Of a stretch of DNA of 64,000 nt, positions 19,299 through 64,000 are shown piece by piece; the first letter of the stretch is position 1, and every line of letters begins with the position of its first letter. The notes under the pieces were generated by a model. It was given only the letters and a program-made list of their open reading frames with translations. It had not been told where the DNA came from and did no database searches. Source of the stretch: Microbotryum violaceum (lineage: Eukaryota); the NCBI GenBank assembly GCA_001244265.2, contig CDLV01000007.1, positions 2,046,001 to 2,110,000 on the forward strand. Reading direction: 5' to 3'. The translations under genes and the position numbers were made by a program.

Positions 19299-22200
19299 TG
19301 TTAGAAGTGGGGTCTGAGAGCCTAACTCATTGCTATTAGTCTTGGTTAATACTTTATTCTGCGCGCGCGCCTATCTTTGTCTTTGCGTCTTTTTTCCTTC
19401 TGGGTTCCTTCTCCACGCTATTCTCATCATCTCACTCGTGTATCTCGGAGCTGGGTCGTGGAGTACCTCTTAGTCCTTGTTGCAACAGGTTATGAGCTCA
19501 ACGGGCGAATCCGACTTCCCCAACGGGTCAGGCAATCGCTTGTATCTCAAGGACACAAGGGTACAAGAGCTGGTCACAACGTGCGTTTATCAATCTTCGA
19601 GCCGACAAAGTATGGGATGTCGTCAATCAATCCATCGACTCCCTTGTCGCGGACTATCGGTCCACGCTCGTTATCGCACATGCAACTGCGTCCGTCGCGC
19701 CAGTTGAACCAGCCTCCTCCGGCTTTAGCGGGCTTGGGGGGGGGCTCTGGTTCTGCGCACTCGGACGCCTCGCCCAGGCTCACCAGCGTTCAAGTTGCGG
19801 ACAAGGTCGCGGAATATCGCGAACGGGCCATCCGCCGCAACGATTTGGCATGCAAGTACATCGCCAATTCGATCTCTGAGGAACAGATGTCTCACTTGTT
19901 TCATCTTACCTCGGCGTACGAGATGTGGGACACCCTCCGTGGTCTCCACTCTCACGGTCGCCCGAGTCGCACTATGGACCTCCTCAACACTCTAGCGCAA
20001 CCTTACTCTGGGGATATTCCTTTTAAGGAATTCGTCAACAAGGTCAAGATCGCCATGACCGATTTTCAGAACCTCGGAGCTCCGCTTCCGCATTGGCTGT
20101 TTGCAGGCATGCTCGTTCGGTCGCTCCCAGCCCAGTATGACTCGATCGTTGGGAACCTTGCCTCCGACATCGACATCCACATGGATTGGAACACGTTCTA
20201 TCCGAAACTCCTGATGAATGTCGAAATGGCTGATTCCCGAAACAAACAAAAGGAATCGTTATCCGCTCGGATCGTTGACAATACTAGCCTCGTCGCCCGT
20301 ATTTCCACCACGGCGCAAAAGGACTACTCCAAGTCGTATTGTTCGCGCTGCAAAGCACTGGGACACGAGCGTGGTTGGCGTCTCTGTCCAAGCAGGAACA
20401 AGGATGCGAGCGCTCCCGCTTCCTCGGACTCAAATTTGAACGTAGCTGCCATTGGTGTAGATGAATCTGCATTGATGACCTACACTTTCCCCTATTCGCG
20501 AACGATGCCACGTTTTCCATGGATCATTGACTCGGGTGCTACGGTCCATTGCATTGGAGACAAGTCGGTCCTATCGGACGTTGTCTCTGAGCCTCTCAAA
20601 ATTTCTGTCGCCAATCAATCTCAAATCGAATCTCCCGGTCATGGCTCAGTGACGTTTCTTACCTCATATGGCGCTCGTATCACCATTAAGAGGGTCTACT
20701 ACATGCCCGGTGCTCAATGCGGTTTTATCTCCATCGACGGTCTGTTGGAATCGATGACGTACGCTGTTGGTCCCCAAAGCAATCTCATTTTTCAGTATCC
20801 ACGGCAAGTCGATTCTGCGCTCGCTTCCTGGTCGGGGGTTTGTCATGGATGCAGCTCCCGTTCAGCCTATCATGTCATCCTCACCGCCTTCAATGGTCGG
20901 AGCCAATTGTCTCACTGGAACCTGTACGTTGATGGAAGCACATCGGAAGTTGGGCCATCAATCTCCTGCGGCGATCGTTTTGGCCGTCAAATCCGGGGCT
21001 ATCACTGGCATCACTCTGAAGGACGAAAAGGTTACTCCTTGCTTCTCGTGCATCCAGGCCAAGTCAAAGCGATCACCCTTCTCCAACAAGAGTACCGAAG
21101 CGCCTCATGCACTCTACCGCGTCTTCATCGATCTTGGGTTTGTCGAACATCCCAATCACCATGGCGATACTATCTATCTCGCTATCGTGGATCAGTATTC
21201 GACGGCTAAATGGACGATCGTGCTAAAGGACAAGAGGGCTGAGACAATTATCGAAGCATGGTCGAAATTTCAAGCCGAGTCCGAGCGTCAAACGGGTCAG
21301 AAAATCAAGAGGGTCAGATCGGACAATGGTCGTGAATTCGACAACTCGTTGTTCCGGGCTCTTCTTGAAAAGCAGGGCATCATCGTGGAATTCACAGCCC
21401 CCTATACTCCGGAGCAAAATGGTCAAGTAGAGCGACTCAATGGATCTCTCATGGGTCTCGTTCGATCAATGCTCCTCAACTCCGGTTGTAAGGCGCGCGC
21501 CTTACTACGGGCCACAGGGATTAGAAATAGAGATTGCGCGCACCTAGCTTCTTCAGTTCCCTCCCCATCGGGCTGACACCAGAAGCTAGGTGAGTACTGG
21601 TGTTCCATATCTCAGCACTCTCGTATATCGGGCTGACACCAGAAGCTAGTTGCAATCCATAAAACTTGCACCTGTCAGCTAGGTCGCCAGTGAGGCTCGA
21701 GAGCGATCTCGTGCCTTTCACCGGTCTTCCCATGCGATTCTGGCCAGATGCTCTGGCCGTCGCAACATTTGTTCTCAATCGTCAACCACATCCTCGTATT
21801 CAAGGAAAAACGGCAATCGAAGTTCTTCTCGGCAAGAAGCCTAGTCTTGCTCATCTTCAGCCATTCGGATCTACGGCGTTTGTCCACGTTCCCAAGGAGC
21901 GTCGCTCCAAGCTTGCACCTCGCTCCATTCAGGGAGTTTTCATCGGGTACTCCGGTGAATACAACTACCGTGTCTGGGTCCAATTGTCGAAACAGGTCTA
22001 CGTTTTGTGTCACGTCACATTCCTTGAGACTCCTTCGGTTGTCACTTCGTCTCAAGATTGTGCGGACGCTTCTGATCCCGTTCATCATTCTCAACCTCCT
22101 CATCTTCCTCATCCTCCGCCAGATGTGTTGCCGTCTACACCAACTTCACCTGTTGTGGATCCAACTTTGCCGGATCCACAGCCTCCTCCGGTGGTTCCAA

Positions 22201-24329
22201 TTGAAGTTGGTCAACAGGGGGGGTATCTTGCAGTCGTTCCTCGTAAGGATGACAACAATGACGACAACGATGGACTCGACGATGGACCTGATAACTATCA
22301 TGACGCAGAAGAACCACTCGACGGTGAGGCGGAAGTCGCTCTCGCTCCTCGTGAAGGTTATGCCATCGTTCGCACTGGTCCAAATCCTGGCCAATTCGAG
22401 AATGTTGATCCTTCCAACATCCTTCCTGCTGGTTCTCGTTATCGACCTCAACCTCCGGAAAATATACTTCCCATCATTTCGGCCATCATGGTTGATGTCT
22501 TGGATACTCCACCCATGTTCCACGACAAGCTTTCCTATGATGCCTACTGTGCTGCCGTGTTTGCCGAAGAAGACATCGAGATACCCAAGACATTCAAGGA
22601 AGCCATGAAGTCACCCTATCGCAACCATTGGAGTGCGGCAATGGTCTCAGAACTTCTACAATTCGATCATCATGGAGTCTTTCAGGAAGTCAAGTGGCAC
22701 GAAGGAATTTGGGTACTCGGCACGATCTGGGTCTACAGTATCAAGCGCGATGCAAACAGCAAAATCATTCGTTTCAAAGCTCGTCTCGTTGCTCAAGGAT
22801 TTGCTCAACACCCAGGCATTGACTACCATGACACCTACGCTCCTGTCGCTCGTTCTTCGACAATTTTGTTCTTGATTGCTCTGGCTGCTGCTCAGGGCCT
22901 GTATCTTGAACAGTTCGATTTTGACTGCGCCTTTCTCAATGGCAAGATGACCAAGGATGTCTATGTTCGATACCCAAAAGGATGGAATCGTCCTCAATCC
23001 CCTGGCAAGTGCCTCAAGCTCGTGGGTTCCATGTATGGCACCAAACAGGCGCCCCGTGAATGGTATCAAGCCGTCAATGATCTCATGCTGTCTCGAGGCT
23101 ACATGAGGGCAACTGCCGATGCTTGCCTCTACATCAAACATTTGGGCACTTCGTTTGCTATCATCACTCTCTATGTTGACGACGGTCTCATTGCGTCCAA
23201 CAATCAGTCCTTCTTGGACTCCGAGCTCGGATCGCTTCACAAGGCCTTCCAGCTCAAGCGTCTCGGGCCCGTCTCCTACTTCCTGGGCTTCGAAATTCAT
23301 TGCACCAAAGATTACATCCTCGTTCACCAAAGCAAGTATGTCCGCACTATGCTCGAGAAGTTTGATTTTGCTTCTCCATCCAAGTGCCGTGCAGTCACGC
23401 CCATGGACGATCGCTCCTTGCTTCGAATCAATGCTACTCCGTTTACCGATGTGTCATTGTGCCAATCGGCTGTGGGTTCCCTGCAGTACGCGTCCACTCG
23501 ATGTCGACCCAATATTGCGATTGCTGTTCGTGCCGTTGCTCAAAAGAACTCCTGTCCAACTGTCGATGATTGGGCTGCGGTCAAGCATATAGTTTGCTAC
23601 CTCAACAGCACCATCAATTTGGGAATTCTTTATCGAAACAGTTCCACAACTTGATTGATGGTCTACTCCGATGCCTCGTTTGCGGATGACCCGGAATCTC
23701 GCAGATCGGTGGGAGCCTATGCATCAATGCTCGCTGGCGGCGTTATCTCCTGGCAGTCAAAGCAACAATCTATGATCGCTACATCCACTACCGAAGCCGA
23801 AATTCTCTCTGCATCCTCAGCCACTCGTGAAGCAATCTGGCTCCGTCGTTTGGCTGGTGATATCGGCATTCCACAAGCACAGCCTACTATCATTCAAGAG
23901 GACAACGCCGCATGCATCCAGATCGCCAAGGATCCGGTCGATCACATGCGAACCAAGCACTTTGACATTGCTCATTTGTTCGTTCGAGAACGGGTTGCTT
24001 CTGGCGAGGTCGAACTTGAATACTGCCCTACCCACGTCAATGCCGCGGATATTATGATGAAGCCTTTGGGATTTCAACGCTTTGATCAACTTTGTGCGCT
24101 ACTTGGAATGGTCTCGTTAGTCTCTTTGACCGGTGGGAGTGTTAGAAGTGGGGTCTGAGAGCCTAACTCATTGCTATTAGTCTAGGATAATACTTTATTC
24201 TGCGCGCGCGCCTATCTTTGTCTTTGCGTCTTTTTTTCCTTCTGGGTTCCTTCTCCACGCTATTCTCATCATCTCACTCGTGTATCTCGGAGCTGAGTCG
24301 TGGAGTACCTCTTAATCCTTGTTGCAACA
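19299..24329 (+). mobile_element. Ty1/Copia LTR retrotransposon (family A), full length but inactivated
   Basis: LTRs 19299-19487 and 24140-24329 (TGTTAG...GCAACA). PBS GGTTATGAGC. Gag knuckle CSRCKALGHERGWRLC, protease IDSGAT, integrase [37 protein letters not shown] and RNase H YSDASFA/STTEAE in Copia order. Frameshifts and a stop at 23652. Confidence 0.95.
21487..21720. mobile_element. Solo LTR inserted in the Copia A integrase
   Basis: TGTAAGG...CTTTCA flanked by the 5-bp TSD CCGGT (21482-21486, 21721-21725). The integrase reads ...MLLNSG | LPMRFWPDA across it. Confidence 0.9.
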
Positions 24330-24907
24330 GAAAGTTTGCCTGTCTTTTGGTCAATATCCTCGCGTCAAGGCGAGGCTCGTTTCGTTGTACTGGATCACTT
24401 TTCTCTCGGCCCCAACGGCTCAACAGCCAGCACTCGAGATTTAGCCAAGGGAGGACATCAGGCGCTGTCGGGGTGACGAGTAGCTGGGGCTTGGCTGCGG
24501 CCTGTTAGTCCCTGGGGACCTCTACCTCCGGCTTCGACCCCCTCCCTTGGCCCCTCGGTGTTCCCCTCCTCTCTGTCTTAGTATTCCTGGTTCTCCGTAT
24601 CCCCAGTTGTGACTTTCTGTATACTCTCCCCCTTCTTTCTCTAGGCGCTCTTGCCTGGTTTTCGAGTATCTTTGCTCCCGCTCTTGGGACGTGAAGCGGC
24701 AGCAGTACTCACCGCCCGTTGGAGTCCGCGTTAGGTGCTCGGCGGGTTTTGATCTGCGCAGCGCTCTTTGCGCGCAGGGGTTTGACTTTCACCCAACTGC
24801 TTGCCGTCGTTGCTTTATAACCTCCTTTAGCTCTTTTTGTAGCGGTCCCAGCCAACCCGAAGGATAGCAATTTATGAGCCCCAGTCAAAAAAACAAAACA
24901 AAAACAA
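24330..24907 (+). mobile_element. LINE family B 3' UTR fragment with A-rich tail
   Basis: Inverted homolog of about 40962-41500. Ends TTATGAGCCCCAGTC followed by an A-rich tract at 24887-24907. Confidence 0.85.
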
Positions 24908-31255
<6,348 letters not shown>

Positions 31256-32944: not shown

Positions 32945-40960
<8,016 letters not shown>

Positions 40961-40961
40961 G

Positions 40962-44517
<3,556 letters not shown>

Positions 44518-45870: not shown

Positions 45871-52333
<6,463 letters not shown>

Positions 52334-52344
52334 TAAAATTTTTA

Positions 52345-55300
52345 TTTTTTTTTTTGTAGAAAACGTTCATCATATTGCCCCCAGTTCCTGTTCCCCCTGT
52401 TTTGGCCTACGGAAAAACTAGATGGAAGACTACGATGATAACACAAACCGCCCGCAAAAGTGCGAGAAACGAGCCAAGTCCACCAATCCGAGATTCAGAT
52501 TCAAATGCCCTAGCCAAGCGGTTGCTCCCCCCCGGAGACTAATGAGAGAGAGAAAGAGAGATGAAGAGAAAAAGAAAGAAAAGAAATGTACTAACGACAG
52601 AAGGCCCACCCCACAGCCACTTCCCACTCGGTCGAGACGAAGACAAGAGCACGACTGCGCAACCACCACGACCCTCGACGCTCCAAGTCTCTGCTCAGTC
52701 ACAACAAGACGCGGTGAAGGTCCCTCAAAACCTCCCCCATCGGCAGTCCCTGGCCCCTCAAAGCCGACTTTCTGCCTGTGTCCGCTGATCCCTCCCTTGA
52801 CTCAGAACCCCGAAGCCGAAGAGCGCGAGCCACACCGAGTCGACGCCAAATCGCGAGATGGTCCATGATCCGCAACGATGAACCTGTAACAAATGAAAGA
52901 TGAAAGCGATCTATTTAGTGTACAGTAGGAGAAAATGATGTCACGAGAATTTGGTGTGTGTGTGTGTGTAGTGGTGGTGGGGGGAAAGTCGAACCCAGCC
53001 TCTACTGCCCTCTCCTCCCCCAAGCTCCTCCCGCCCTCAGCTTCAACCTCTCCTCCAAGATGATCCTCCTCCTCCCAACACCCTCCATCCTCGTCCCCAC
53101 TTTTGCATCCCCCACCTCCCACTGCTGATCATCTCCAAGACCAGCCCGGTGAATATTTCGATCGTCCTCCCCGCTCCTTCTTGATCGCGTAGACTGGCCT
53201 TGAGCTTCGGAAGTCCGAACATGCGTTGAACAGCCGTGTAATGCGTGTTGTCGATCGTGTCGAGCCCCAGTGCGTCGCAGAGCACGCTCCTTGCCGCGAT
53301 CCAAACGTTCCCAGAGTCAACGCAGTCGAAAAAGTAGTGGTCGGTGTCGTCCACCGGCGCTTTGCAGACGAGGCACGCGGAAGAAGTGTCGTGATTCTGT
53401 TGGTGTTGCAGCTTGCGCGTCGGGGTGAAGCGGAGAATCAGCTTGAACCAAACTTCCCTCTCCCTCGCCGTCAGTGCCTTCGAGTTGACCGCCTTCCAAA
53501 AGCTCCTGAGGTCGTCCGGCTGCGGTGGTCCCTTGAGCCCGAGCGTGTTGGTAAAGGCCTTCGCGTTCAGGACCCGGCGGATGCGACGGATGGTGTACGG
53601 TCGAGCCATGTTCAGCAGCTTGTACTGGCTCGCCTGCTGTGGAAGCACCGGGTCCGGAAGGCGCTGCTCCATTGCGAAGCGGGCCACGGGCTTGGGGAGA
53701 ATCGCCTCGAGTGGTGCGCTGGTGCCGATCCGTGGAGGCACGTTGAGCCGTCCTGCCGCCACCGCCACCGCCAAGGGCGTGTTCTTGTGTCGATCGACAG
53801 TGAACCGGTACCAGGCCGCGATTGCCAGTCGCTGCGGGAGCCCGCGTCGATCGTACTCGCTGTTGTCGCCGAGCACATCCGCCGGCGGCGTCCAAAGGTG
53901 AAACCCCCCACCCGCATACAACTCGCGCCGGTAAAGATCCGCCACCTTCGGGTAGCCCTGGAGACGAAGGTAGTCAGGTATATGAACCGCGTCGATGGTC
54001 TGTCTCCCTCTGATGGGGTGTGGAGGCTGCCGAGCAAGGTGGGAAGCGCGAGCAGGTTCGCGGTGGTCAAGGTCCTCGGGTTGACCTGCGCGTCTTGCTG
54101 TTTCGGAACCCCAAAGCTGCTCGCCATCGGGGATGGAGGTCGCTGGGGATGGGAGTGGATGGATGTGGCCAGAGATCGGTGGCCAGGTCGAGGTCGGACT
54201 GAGCTCGCTGGAGTGCCGCGCGCGCAAGTCCTTGCCAGATCGCGCCCGAACCGCCGAGAAGAACGTCCCAGATCCGTGCCGCAACCGCGTACACAACGTC
54301 CTGCATCCTGATCACCCCGAGTCCCCCCTTGAGCTTGGCTGTGAACACGATATCTCTGCCGTAGCTGGTCCTGCCCTTGCCCCACGGACGAAATCGACGA
54401 GCATGTCATCGAGCTTCTTGACGACTTCGGGCGGCGGGATGTCGGCTGCAAGGAAGTGCAGGATCTTGGGGATGGCGTACCGATTGACGTAAAAGGCACG
54501 GGTGTGGTGTGTGAGCCAGCGATGCTGAACCCCTTCCAGCGTCGCCTCGAGGCGTTCGATGAGATTCGCGTAGGCGAGTTCGGTGTCGCCGCTCGGGTCG
54601 AAGGGGAGGCCGATCCACTCGAGCGACTCGCCTGCGGCCTTGACGACGAGCGGGCGTTGCCCCGGGTCCCAGCGGCGTCCGATCGGTAGGACGACCGTCT
54701 TGTCCGTGTTGAGCCGGCCATTCGTTGCATGCCTCCAGTCGAGCGCCAGGTCATCGAGCAAGTTGAGTGACCCCAAGCTCGCGACGGCGACGACAACGTC
54801 ATCGGCAAAAGCAAGCGATGTAATGGCGCGGCTCTGTGGGTACGGATGAAGTGCAGGTATGGAGAGATTCAGCGCGATGTTTCGACGGTGTAGAGCATCC
54901 AGAAACGGCTGAAACACGATGTCCTAGACCGACGACGACGCCGGGTCCCCTTGGCCGAGCCCACATGTCAGTCGTACCGGCGCCGTCAAGAACCCATTGA
55001 TGATGTAGCGGGCCGAGGTCGAGTCACCCGAGTAGAGCATCATCAGCACGCGAAGAAAGGTGGCAGGAGCGCCCAGAGCGTCAAAGATGGCAAAGATCCA
55101 GTCATGCTCGACGAGGTCGTAGGCGGACGATTGGTCAAGAGATAAGAGTGCGGCCGCGGGGAACTCGGTCCTGCGCGCGCCAACTTCCTCGATCAGGAGA
55201 CGAAGGTGTAGTGCAGCGTCAGCCGATCGGCGGTCCTTGACGAATCCGTGCTGCTGCGGCGGGAGGAGATCGGGTAGAATCTGGTTCAAACGGGCGACAT

Positions 55301-58300
55301 AGACCTTGGTAAAGACCTTGTAATCGCACTCGCGCAGGGTGATCGGCCGGTACGACGAAAGTTCGGCGCGATCGGCATTCTTCTTGTGTCGCTTGAAGAT
55401 GAGGCGCACGAGTCCTTGGCCCTGCTTGGGAGAGAGTGAGCCTCGCTCTATCATCGTGTTGTAGGCCTTGGTCAGCACCTTGGCCCACGCCTTGGGTGCG
55501 GTCTGGTAGAGTTCGTAGGGCACGCCCGACGGTCCCGGCGATCGCCCCGGGTGCGTCGTCCCGATCGCGGCCACGACCTCGTCCTCGGTGATTGGTCGCT
55601 GGAGTAAGTCGATCTGTGATTCCGAGAGTCGGCGCAGAAAGAGAGGATCCGAGCGCGGGTCGTCGCAAGTCCGCGCCGCCCTGATCGGCGCGAGGAATTC
55701 GTCCCGAAGTCGGTCGACGCGGTCCGGGTCACGAGGCTCGATGTGGTAGAGGCGCTGGAAATGCGCCTGCGTGTGGTCAAGAGCGACATCAATGTCCTGC
55801 GTTAGCTCTCCGTTGCTCAAGCGCAGTGCTGTGATCTTGGAGTCCGAGTTCCGCGCCGCGAGCTTGGCGTGGACCGGCCGCGACAGTCGTTCCTCGGAGG
55901 CGATCTCGGGTACGTGGGCTCGGATCCGGAGTAGGCGCGCGCGCTCCTCGACCGCCCGCTTGAGTTCCTCGGACGTCCTTGTCCATTCTGCCGTTTCCGC
56001 CTCCCCCCATTCCGGTATCGCCTCCAGATCCTGCACCCTCCCCACCAAATACTCCATCCGTTCCGTCCGCTCCCGATGCAGCCTCCTCGCCATCTCCCCA
56101 CCCCTATCCCTGCACGCCTTCAGAATGACCTCGAGCTCCCCCACCGGTTCCTCCCCGCTTGCCCCTTCCAACCATCCTTCCATCATCCGCTGGAATTCCA
56201 CCGTCTTAAAGGTTGTGGTGTTGATTCGATGTAGTTGGTTTGATGTGGTAGGTAGGCTGAGCTGTGGGAGGGTCGCATCAGGATCGTCTGAGAGAGCCAG
56301 CACAATCAAGACCGGTCGGTGATCGGAAAGCTCCTTGGGATAGTCGTAGATCGTCGAGGCCTGATCGAGTCTTTTTTGGTGTGTCCGTTGCAGGAGAAAG
56401 TAGTCAAGCCGGGAGAAGGAGTTGGGTCGCTTGCGATTGGGATTAGGTCGAGTGAAGGATGGGGTGATGGGGTGTTTGTAGCGGATGCAGTCCGTGTAGG
56501 CCGAGTCGAGCTTGCCGATCAGGATTGGCCAGTGGTGGCCGCGCCGACTTTGGTTCCGCCGATCGACTTCTGGGCGCGGGCAGTCGTTGAGATCACCGCC
56601 AAGGAGTCGGAGGTGGGATTTATGTGTTTTGTGAAATAAGAGTTTGTCAAAGAATTTCGCTCGTTGCTTTGGGTCAACGGGCGCGTAAACGTTGTTGATT
56701 TCTAGAATTTTGATGTCGCCCCGCAGTCGAAAGGACGTGACGAGGAGCCGGCCGTCGAGTGCCGAGTGGGTGCGCAAGAGCTCGGCGTCGATCAGGGGGG
56801 AGTCAGCCGGAATTAGAGTCAGACAATGTTGGTTGATGAAGAGCTTGCCCTCGTACTCGTCCTTGATGAGTTGCCAGAGGTGCGGTCTGATGAAGTGCTC
56901 TTGTATGAGAATGGCCGATGCTTTGAAAAGGGATAGGTAGTTGTAAATGTCACGTCGTTTCTCCGGGACCCCCATGCCCCTCCTCACGTTCCAGGTGATG
57001 ATGGTGTGCTTAATCATTAATGGGTAGTTGAGGTCGAAGCGCTCTTGGCGGTGGTGACGTCCTCAAAGAGGGGGAGGGCGGGCAGGACATCGTCCTCGGG
57101 CTCGTGGTCGGACCATCTTTTCTCCTCGGCTACCCCCTTTGCTTTCCCTCGGTCCACTTTCGTCACGCCAACCGGCATCGCCGCCGCCGCTGACATCGAC
57201 CTCGTCACCCTCCGCCCCTCTGTTCCATCCTTGACAACGACGCGGCTCTTCCCTTTGATGATCACTCGCTTGGCGTCGGTCGGTTCGTCACTCGGGTCAC
57301 TGAGGTCCGCCGCAGTCTGCGACCTCTTCATTACCGGCTTTTTGAACTTCGAAGCGGTCCCCCTGATATTGATGGAACGTATCTCACCGTCCTCATCCCA
57401 CGTGGCAAAGTTGTGACGCACCAAAGGGGTTTCAGCGTCGAGCCTCCTCTCGATGCTTTGGTCCCGCTCGAGTCGTGCCTGCTCAACCCAGTTAGCTCTG
57501 ATCCTGTCCCACTCCTCCCCCTCGCGAAGCGACTTGGCAAGAGTTTCGGGTGACAAAGGTGGGGTTGGTTCGTGGGGTGTCGATTCGCGGGAAGCGGTGG
57601 CGGCGGTTGCTGTTGCGTCGCTGTCGTCGTCATTGCCCAGCCTGTTCGTCTCCCCTAAGTCCGTCGCTTCCGCGTTCTCCGCTTTCGTCGCTCCCCCTGC
57701 CTCGTCCACATCGTCCACCTCCGTCGCCACCTCCTCTTCCTCCATCTCCGTCGCCACCTCCCTTTCCTCCATCTCCGTCGCCACCTTGCCTTCTGTTTCG
57801 CCCCTTCCATCCGCCATCACCTCATCCTCATCAATCACCTCTCCATCGGATCCTCCGCAGTCCACTAAAACCGACTCGTCCTCGCTCTTAAGTTTGATGA
57901 CCTCCGTTTTCACGGTCGCCTCTGATTCCATCTCCGAGTCCTCCGAGTCCTCGTCATCCGCCTTATCACCAGCCTCCTCCTCCCCCGATTCCTCTGGCCC
58001 CTGTCCGCTCTGGCCAGTTACCGCTTCCTCCTGTCCCTCCTCAACCTCGAGCCCGGCGAAGCGATTCTGTGATGCGATCCTGCTAACAACTGGCACAGGA
58101 ATGGGGGCCTCGGCCTCCACAATGTTGGTGTCGTTGGTGATGGTGTTCTTGTTGGCGTTGGGTTGCCGTTGCCGTTGCCGTTGCCGTTGTGAGCCTCCTT
58201 TCGCTTGCTCTCCTGATCCAGTCCGCAGGTTCCCACGTGACCAACGAAGTGGCACCTACCGCAAGCCGCCTCCTTCTCATAGTCATGGCGAAGGGCGGTG

Positions 58301-59583
58301 ACCGAGATGCCTCGAGTGGGAAGGCCGATTCTCGAAGGTAGGATCTCTTTCAAGGTCGTGTTAGGGCGTTTGAACAGGGAGTCGTCATCGAAGTGTAGGA
58401 AAGCTGAGTAGTCTCCGGCAACGTGGGCAAAGGCCGAGGCGTTGTCCACGCTGATAATGCGCAGAACCTGCACAAGTTGGCACGAATGTCCCTTGCCTGA
58501 CAAGTCCTGCACTAGTAATTGGAACGATTTGATGATGGCATCCATGGAAGGCACTCCTTGAACACCGACGTTGATTCGAAGCTCGACCATGTTATGGTGG
58601 AACCTGTGAGATTTCGCGAAGCGGGCCTTCGCCGATCGCCAAGTGAGAGCAGGGGGCGTCGTAAGCGCAGCGTCACGTGCCTCGCCGGTGACGAACCCAA
58701 CGGTAACGCGATGGTGAGCCGCCCCATTACGCAGGATTGATGAATGTTGTACGCCTAGGATCTGTGGTCGATAGGCTGCAAGGTGGTCCGGCAGAGGAAC
58801 TCCAGGCTCAAAGCAGATAGGAGAGATCGGCGATAACAGCCTCGTGACGCAGGCCACGAGATCGGTCTTGTCGGCATGAGACGCTCGCGAGGCGCTCTGG
58901 TGAGACAGAGTCACTTCAAGGGCGTAATCAAAGATGTTCTCGACAGACCGGTTCGCGTTCAAGGCCGAGAATTTCAGCGATGTGGCGGTGGCGACGGGGT
59001 AGAGTTCGGCGAAGTAGATGGCCTGGACCCAACGATCCATGCGGTTTCCGGGTACAGCACCCATGGCTTGTAGGAGGCTGCCCAGAGCCTTGGCACGCTG
59101 TTGTTGTTGTTGCTGTTGTTCAGGTGACTGAGTCGCCTGACTCGCAGCGGCGGCATAGTTGGGTGCGGCGGTGGCGGGGCCCGTGGCTTGCGTCTTCTTC
59201 GAGCTTATCGGGATCTGGTCGCGGGTGGCTGGACGCTGGTGGCGGACACCGGTGGTGGCGGTGCCGGCCGTGGGGACCCAGGGTCTCCTGTAGACATCTT
59301 GTCGGTGTATCACTTGTTAACTCGAGTATCGAAGACTGCGGTAGGGCGATTTCGAAGTGAAGTGAAGTGAAGTGAAGTGAAGTGTAGTGAGGTGAGGTGA
59401 GGTGAGGTGAAGTGAAGTGAAGTGAAGTGAAGTGAAGTGAGGTGAGGTGAGGTGAAGTGAAGTGAAGTGAAGTGAAGTGAGGTGAAGTGAAGTGAAGTGA
59501 AGTGAGGTGAGGTGAGGTGAGGTGAGGTGAGGTGAAGTGAAGTGAAGTGAAGTGAAGTGAAGTGAAGTGAGGGGGAAGTCGAG
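52345..59583 (-). mobile_element. L1/Tx1-like LINE (A1), full length with a few disabling mutations
   Basis: T11 tail at 52345-52355. About 650-bp 3' UTR. ORF1 about 59300-57017 ([13 protein letters not shown]). ORF2 57017-53002 with APE, RT and zinc finger; premature stop at 54924 and frameshifts. Possible A/T TSD at 52334-52344 and 59584-59594. Confidence 0.94.
59354..59571. repeat. Pentanucleotide tandem array (GTGAA/GTGAG)n, about 43 units
   Basis: Directly visible; blocks of GTGAA and GTGAG units alternate. Lies at the 5' end of LINE A1. Confidence 0.97.
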
Positions 59584-59649
59584 TAAAAATTTTAAACTAG
59601 TGAGCAGTGATATGATATTGTACAAACGCGCCTATATTGCCACATTATC

Positions 59650-59736
59650 GGGGATGTAGCTCAGGGGTAGAGCGCTTGCTTAGCATCATCTTATGTGATG
59701 TGCATGAGGTCCCGGGTTCGATTCCCTGCCTCTCCA
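59650..59736 (+). tRNA. tRNA-Ala(AGC) with 15-nt intron (59686-59700); possibly pseudogenised
   Basis: GGGGATGTAGCTCAGGGGTAGAGCG...TT-AGC-A[intron]T...GGTTCGATTCC...CTCCA. G3-U70 alanine determinant, intact A and B boxes, TTTT at 59743-59746. One mismatch each in the acceptor, anticodon and T stems. Confidence 0.88.

Positions 59737-60127: not shown

Positions 60128-64000
<3,873 letters not shown>

Follow-up and report, generated by a model that had tools for sequence, protein, structure and literature searches.

Among fungi, solo long terminal repeats (LTRs) are known as the delta and sigma elements of Saccharomyces Ty1 and Ty3 and as the solo Tf LTRs of Schizosaccharomyces pombe. Repeated enhancers in the U3 part of LTRs are represented by the 75-bp repeats of murine leukaemia virus and by the BII boxes of tobacco Tnt1. 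The leader RNA of HIV-1 contains a splice-donor hairpin and adopts alternative conformations, and in HTLV-1 and the foamy viruses the major splice donor is located inside the R part of the LTR.

For rust fungi, solo LTRs with 5-bp duplications are described in passages of one report (PMC10886601). The genome of Microbotryum lychnidis-dioicae is given as 26.1 Mb with a G + C content of 55.4% in an excerpt of its description (PMC4469406), and the G + C content of the sequence analyzed here agrees with this value. According to parts of the published work, Copia and Ty3 LTR elements are the main repeats of these genomes and nested copies occur among the LTR elements (PMC10502011, PMC5381629, PMC4469406); excerpts of two of these articles also describe a RIP-like process at TCG sites (PMC10502011, PMC5381629).

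The 234-bp element analyzed here is located in a 64-kb stretch of a Microbotryum violaceum contig, referred to as the window in the following. Like the fungal solo LTRs, it has TG...CA ends, short inverted termini and a 5-bp duplication and lacks an internal region, and it is likewise multi-copy with different flanks and nested in another retroelement. Unlike the named fungal examples, it is known from its LTR alone, with neither a Copia nor a Ty3 parent assigned.

Insertion site and host element

The element, its target-site duplication and the interrupted host element have the following positions in the window.

19299–24330, plus strand: host Ty1/copia element interrupted by the LTR, identified by its LTRs and Pfam domains
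21482–21486, no strand assigned: CCGGT, left copy of the 5-bp target-site duplication, identified by the empty-site joint
21487–21720, no strand assigned: very probable solo LTR, 234 bp, TGTAAGG...CCTTTCA, with multi-copy loose ends at both termini
21721–21725, no strand assigned: CCGGT, right copy of the 5-bp target-site duplication, identified by the empty-site joint

The LTRs of the host copia element are located at 19299–19488 and 24140–24330 and are 97.4% identical. Upstream of the insert, the Pfam domains rve and gag_pre-integrs and, further upstream, Retrotran_gag_2 were detected, and SH3_retrovirus and RVT_2 were found downstream of it. The reverse transcriptase shares 84–87% identity with Microbotryum silenes-dioicae proteins, and its identity to an M. 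intermedium protein is 76%. The reading frame changes between gag-PR and IN, and the codon at 23652–23654 is an in-frame stop; the host element therefore was or became a dead copy. The window is repeat-dense in general and contains a second copia element at about 34742–39532 and, in addition, several non-LTR elements in which Exo_endo_phos and RVT_1 domains were detected.

The boundaries given for the LTR in the initial annotation proved to be exact, with TG at 21487–21488, CA at 21719–21720 and CCGGT on both sides. The termini TGTAAGG and CCTTTCA are inverted-complementary at six of seven positions. Upstream of the insert, the integrase frame of the host reads ...YTPEQNGQVERLNGSLMGLVRSMLLNSG, enters the insert and is terminated by a stop 30 codons past the junction; downstream, it resumes with LPMRFWPDALAVATFVLNRQP.... 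The deletion of the 234-bp insert together with one CCGGT (239 nt in total) restores this frame exactly (...MLLNSG/LPMRFWPD..., with the slash at the joint). The element itself contains no ORF, as stops are present in five of its six frames and the sixth is stopped near its end. Neither a second LTR nor an internal coding region is present at the locus, and the termini are not repeated nearby.

Four public runs (X1, X2, X15 and X17; Logan contigs, probably DNA) comprising 17–31 million letters each were compared with positions 21000–22200 at 80% likeness. In all four runs, one contig joins 21481 to 21721, by which 239 nt with the ends CC..CA are skipped and five letters are shared. These contigs differ from the window at a few flank positions, and for this reason they represent further members of the copia family that lack the insert, i.e., empty sites. 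Apart from the empty site, three further skips are among the joints listed for the four runs. The interpretation of the 239-nt skip as an intron was ruled out, since the joined form occurs in DNA-labelled runs and its ends, with five shared letters, are CC..CA and not GT..AG. Record 6 of run X1 bridges 21688–21809 with no differences from the window; the very same insertion is therefore present in this run.

Hairpin, direct repeats and terminal palindrome

Within the element, one inverted repeat, three same-sense copies of a motif and one palindrome could be located.

21488–21505, no strand assigned: terminal palindrome GTAAGGCGC/GCGCCTTAC, found by inverted-repeat search
21541–21592, no strand assigned: imperfect 19-bp hairpin or inverted repeat with 12 perfect outer pairs, a CACC bulge, an inner stem and a pyrimidine-rich loop
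21567–21592, plus strand: direct repeat copy 1, ATCGGGCTGACACCAGAAGCTAGGTG, the end of which is the 3′ arm of the hairpin
21627–21652, plus strand: second copy of the direct repeat (26 nt), which differs at one position (AGTTG for AGGTG) and lacks the donor-like hexamer
21669–21684, plus strand: degenerate occurrence of the core motif, CACC-TGTC-AGCTAGGT, found in the sequence and by repeat search

The outer arms CACCTAGCTTCT (21541–21552) and AGAAGCTAGGTG (21581–21592) show 100% complementarity and are separated by 28 nt, in agreement with the 12-bp pairing described in the initial annotation (12 of 12 positions). The CACC bulge (21577–21580) and the 10-nt loop CCTCCCCATC reported there are both in the sequence. 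The inner stem had been described as TCAGTTC/GGGCTGA with two G-U pairs; this pairing is readable in the sequence, but ViennaRNA favours TCAG/CTGA plus CCC/GGG, and its preferred fold of the hairpin requires no G-U pairs. The terminal palindrome had likewise been described correctly. In variant copies from the public runs, the sequence starts with TGTAAGGCAAG followed by GCCTTAC, by which the 7-nt palindrome arms are kept and the centre is different (loose ends at 21499), and one variant copy reads TGTACGGCAAG with one mismatch in a palindrome arm.

In mononucleotide shuffles of the element, a perfect separated arm of at least 12 was never obtained (0 of 200, maximum 9). A direct repeat of at least 23 was likewise absent from shuffled sequences (0 of 300, maximum 10), and the repeats are thus beyond chance expectation. 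The hairpin alone has a predicted energy of −25.7 kcal/mol (ViennaRNA), and the fold of the whole element reaches z = −3.3 on the plus strand and −1.9 on the minus strand. The hairpin folds on both strands, as expected for an inverted repeat in DNA, and therefore nothing marks the plus strand as the RNA strand.

The 23-mer at 21567–21589 occurs again at 21627–21649 with a spacing of 60, as had been noted before, and the duplication extends to 26 nt with one mismatch. Furthermore, AGCTAGGT is present at 21584, at 21677 and inverted at 21542, and it occurs four times in total on both strands of the 64-kb window. Each 8-mer of the motif has 3–4 occurrences in the window (both strands), clustered within the 234 bp. 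The reverse complement of 21541–21566 corresponds to the 26-mer unit, from which it differs by a slightly changed GGGCTGA part and by the lack of four letters, those facing the CACC bulge. Read from the sequence, a single unit of about 23 nt, present in three to four copies of which one is inverted, accounts for both the hairpin and the competing arm, which are therefore not two separate devices.

Copies of the element in public runs

A second copy of the LTR is absent from the 64-kb window, in which the best non-self match is 15 nt long, and the 23-mer had 0 matches in a metagenome scan. Two metagenome loci (L001 and L002) that were found with a 22-mer of the LTR 3′ end were rejected as chance hits, as the match comprises only 23 nt in unrelated GC-rich sequence. 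In all four public runs, however, contigs cease matching exactly at 21487 and at 21720/21721, and the flanks beyond these positions disagree (agreement 0.5–0.7). Due to these exact loose ends with unlike flanks, the 234 bp represent a repeat family sharing these ends. Contigs whose match starts at 21687/21688 have a common, different upstream sequence (agreement 0.82–0.97 in six listed rows from the four runs), and a related family therefore has only the last 33 nt in common with the element. LTR subfamilies with one common end show this pattern.

The solo LTR proposed in the initial annotation is borne out by the TG...CA ends, the 5-bp CCGGT duplication, the in-frame interruption of the integrase, the empty sites in four of four runs and the multi-copy nature of the element. 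Based on the ends, the duplication, the empty site and the family with fixed ends, the 234-bp element is very probably a solo LTR, the parent of which is known here from the LTR alone. Another kind of small mobile element, e.g., a MITE-like DNA transposon that has short inverted ends and generates a 5-bp duplication, or else a miniature retroelement, would agree with the termini forming a 6/7 inverted repeat and with the lack of a full-length parent among the copies seen. This alternative is very unlikely, since a 5-bp duplication together with TG...CA ends is the signature of LTRs, the 234 bp contain neither an A/T tail nor the terminal direct repeats of a miniature retroelement, a part resembling tRNA or 5S is lacking, and the related family with only the last 33 nt in common fits LTR subfamilies.

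An LTR derived from a small RNA (tRNA, 5S or snRNA, as in Cassandra, Helenus and Ajax) was also considered and rejected. In the element, ARAGORN detected no tRNA-like part, and no RNA family match was obtained with Rfam, for which the best hit was a snoRNA model with E = 0.79. Helenus is reported to be absent from Microbotryum in passages of PMC10886601.

The copies in the public runs also contain the repeats. Record 21 of run X17 spans 21542–21717 with one substitution and four inserted letters, and record 13 of run X15 spans 21566–21717 with two substitutions and one gap; both direct repeat copies are kept in each of them. A more divergent copy is represented by record 27 of run X2 (21566–21677, seven substitutions and three gaps). 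In total, the runs that contain the repeat unit carry the labels of four different organisms. The arrangement of hairpin and repeats is a property of the LTR family and not peculiar to the copy in the window.

Variation between the copies concerns the stem, the repeats and the sequence between them. At 21541, a C to A change accounts for 187 of a depth of 287 in run X17 and breaks the outermost pair of the stem, with no change of the partner among the listed variants. Insertions of 1–3 nt are located between the repeats at 21624–21626, and insertions were also found at 21679. In one X2 contig, 21589 is followed directly by TTGCAATCCA, a sequence found 3′ of the second repeat (10 loose letters); this contig is apparently a single-repeat copy without GTGAGT, for which the indication is weak. 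One X15 contig with a loose end at 21677 lacks the fourth copy of the motif at 21669–21684.

These variants bear on the possibility that the repeats are functionless relics, i.e., that template switching or slippage in reverse transcription duplicated and inverted a piece of about 23 nt, which was then spread by amplification. Copies in other runs are 1–2 substitutions away from the window over about 150–175 nt, which points to a young family in which conservation is uninformative, and both the apparent single-repeat contig of X2 and the tolerated insertions of 1–3 nt at 21624–21626 agree with a lack of function. On the other hand, three to four motif copies in both orientations within 150 bp exceed a single duplication event, and the unit is retained in runs labelled as four different organisms. 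Functionless relics are rather unlikely but represent the main rival of a cis-regulatory role, and at the same time the conservation of the repeats may mirror recent amplification instead of selection, as the copies are nearly identical.

A candidate promoter element could also be found by comparison of the copies.

21659–21664, no strand assigned: TATA-like site, read as CCATATAAC in the family, with T at 21662 in four runs

The change from A to T at 21662 is present in essentially all of the depth of the four runs, and A is found in the window copy. The site may be a TATA box; it is the best-conserved TATA-like site of the family and has been lost in the window copy. Another TATA-like site at 21625–21629 is broken by insertions in the main variant of X17.

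With respect to the sense strand, five listed right-flank ends of run X17 read C-T8/9-GA, in agreement between contigs. Seen on the minus strand, this flank is a purine run abutting the LTR, which resembles a polypurine tract and is a weak hint at a minus sense strand. The other loose-end consensuses (30 nt) are mixtures with an agreement of 0.5–0.7, from which neither a primer binding site nor a polypurine tract could be read.

Candidate roles of the repeated unit

The initial annotation had interpreted the hairpin and the second direct repeat as a two-state RNA switch that controls splicing, priming or packaging. In this model, the 5′ arm pairs either with 21581–21592, by which a splice donor is masked, or with 21641–21653, by which it is exposed. 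The putative donor is part of the first 3′ arm.

21590–21595, plus strand: GTGAGT, a hexamer resembling a 5′ splice site, at chance frequency and of putative use

The sequence AG/GTGAGT is located at 21588–21595 as described, with GTG in the 3′ arm, but the hexamer is no commoner than expected by chance. In the 64-kb window, GTGAGT occurs 14 times on the plus strand and 12 times on the minus strand, i.e., about once per 4.9 kb with both strands counted. Among the joints listed for the four runs, none starts from 21589/21590; as the contigs are probably DNA, this is uninformative on splicing. None of the listed runs is on record as RNA, and X15 and X17, which are guessed to be RNA, contain empty sites and numerous repeat flanks in the manner of DNA.

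On paper, the 5′ arm can pair with either partner, as 12 of 12 positions are complementary in the first case and 12 of 13 in the second, and this part of the earlier proposal stands. The second pairing is strongly disfavoured in the predicted ensemble (ViennaRNA). State 1 has a constrained ensemble energy of −90.03 kcal/mol compared to −90.06 kcal/mol for the free ensemble (P = 0.96), whereas state 2 reaches −80.89 kcal/mol (P = 3e-7) and is thus about 9 kcal/mol worse. Furthermore, the pairing of state 1 is local and would be formed first in transcription, before the second arm is made. The idea resembles the HIV-1 leader in that a donor is partly buried in a stem and an alternative pairing partner is present. 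Unlike in the HIV-1 leader, the two states are far from isoenergetic here, and no covariation is seen among the listed variants.

Both direct copies are retained in other runs, as the switch would require, but no compensatory stem changes are among the listed variants, the copies being nearly identical, and the stem variant with A at 21541 is uncompensated. One variant copy apparently lacks the donor together with the 3′ flank of repeat 1. The solo LTR has neither an acceptor nor an internal region here, and no trigger, ligand or factor site is apparent. If the plus strand is the sense strand, the conserved TATA-like site is downstream of the stem, which would place the stem in U3 and outside the 5′ leader; if the minus strand is the sense strand, there is no donor at all. 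Due to the energy gap and the 26 hexamers in 128 kb of both strands, the two-state switch is not supported; as stated, it is predicted to be thermodynamically implausible, and we regard it as extremely improbable.

A single functional stem without a second state has to be distinguished from the switch. It would be formed by RNA or minus-strand DNA and act in R-region strand transfer, as a 3′-end signal or in packaging. The predicted hairpin is very stable (−25.7 kcal/mol, P = 0.96, fold z = −3.3), and this would equally suit a functional RNA stem. In minus sense, the stem is downstream of the family TATA-like site at 21659–21664 and could be in the 5′ leader, and the T-run flanks in X17 weakly favour this strand. 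The absence of covariation among the listed variants, including the C to A change at 21541 (187/287, X17) without partner change, argues against such a stem, and it is considered unlikely. It is very improbable that the family-wide 19-bp stem and the extra same-sense copy together represent a functional structure, namely a leader or R-region hairpin of the minus strand with the upstream copy as its competitor. If this were true, a minus-strand hairpin near the transcript start would govern strand transfer, packaging or expression, and the upstream copy would compete with it during reverse transcription or RNA folding.

The repeated unit can also be read at the level of DNA. Its core, CACC-N3/4-AGCTAGGT, is present in one inverted copy (21541–21566) and in two to three direct copies (21567–21592, 21627–21652 and, degenerate, 21669–21684). 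The units may go back to duplications and inversions within the LTR in the course of reverse transcription and would serve as binding sites in both orientations around the TATA-like site. Like the U3 enhancer repeats of murine leukaemia virus and Tnt1, they are several copies of a short unit, the number of which varies among the family members. Unlike in these systems, one copy is inverted here, which results in a palindrome capable of forming a hairpin, and the placement in U3 is presumed for the present element. The broken TATA-like site at 21625–21629 and the near identity of the copies count against this reading. The chance that the repeats are promoter or enhancer motifs acting in DNA is judged to be close to even, though slightly below it.

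For the locus as a whole, an LTR retrotransposon of a multi-copy family very probably inserted into an older Ty1/copia integrase gene, by which the 5-bp CCGGT duplication was generated, and recombination between its two LTRs would then have removed the internal part. The copy remaining here is an inert relic, by which the host integrase is cut short 30 codons beyond the junction. Taken together, the best explanation is a nested solo LTR whose repeats are cis-regulatory DNA of this LTR and inert at the present site, and we consider it reasonably probable.

In anther-smut-type genomes, repeat-dense regions are expected to contain solo LTRs inside degenerate copia elements, and the present case is an ordinary feature of such a region. 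Two outcomes are useful, namely the definition of a clean insertion, for which both the exact ends and the empty site are available, and the recognition that the proposed switch consists of copies of one motif. A possible use of the LTR family is as a marker by which nested insertions are dated. If the repeated unit is a promoter element, it would provide a handle on the expression of LTR elements in these fungi.

Host Ty1/copia element and the last 33 nt of the solo LTR

The degenerate Ty1/copia element (19299-24330) that carries the 234-bp solo LTR (21487-21720) in its integrase frame has two LTRs of 97.4% identity. Its coding region shifts frame from gag-PR (19350-21209) to integrase (20758 onward) and contains an in-frame stop at 23652-23654. 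No target-site duplication was evident when the 5 bases beside each LTR were compared, since the flanking TGTAC (left) and GAAAG (right) differ. A GCGCGCGCC run is present in the LTRs of this host element (19360-19372, 24201-24213) and in the solo LTR (21494-21501), which may be a coincidence or a common motif.

In the contigs of public sequencing runs, the final 33 nt of the solo LTR (21688-21720) are common to another, more abundant repeat family, of which the upstream sequence is unlike that of the solo LTR and well conserved, with an agreement between contig flanks of 0.82-0.97 among the six rows listed. Within 21000-22200, the depth reaches its maximum over these 33 nt in the runs X17 and X1; in the run X2, several other bins exceed them.

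Second copia family, LINE-like elements and gene content

A second copia family was found at the following places:

34742-39532, minus strand, coding (gag_2, rve, RVT_2)
47663-47945, further place
62496-62882, further place
38007-39381 versus 64000-62751, further places

Its LTRs of ~280 bp (TGTGTTGTTG...CCCACAACA) occur with 98-99% identity at at least four places in the window, and a 1.07-kb piece is repeated with 99% identity. The family looks like a case of recent amplification or duplication.

Non-LTR (LINE-like) elements were recognized by their Exo_endo_phos and RVT_1 domains:

24960-31255, LINE-like
42319-44391, LINE-like
47934-50465, LINE-like
52657-59316, LINE-like

Two LINE-like copies in opposite orientation share 79-80% identity across about 4.5 kb. 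A predicted tRNA-Ser (GCT) adjoins a short tandem array, in which the units are about 20 nt and about 100 nt long; this pair borders a LINE-like copy:

59650-59736, tRNA-Ser (GCT), predicted by ARAGORN
59354-59587, adjoining array region

No ordinary genes were recognized among the 14 long ORFs of the window scanned against Pfam, six of which have no Pfam match.

Differences between copia copies

Between the run contigs and the window, the copia copies differ mostly by transitions in 21000-22200, for example at 26 of the 32 places among those listed for X1. PMC10502011 and PMC4469406 contain passages that describe RIP-like or CpG-directed mutation in these fungi, and the transition excess among the copia copies is consistent with such a process.
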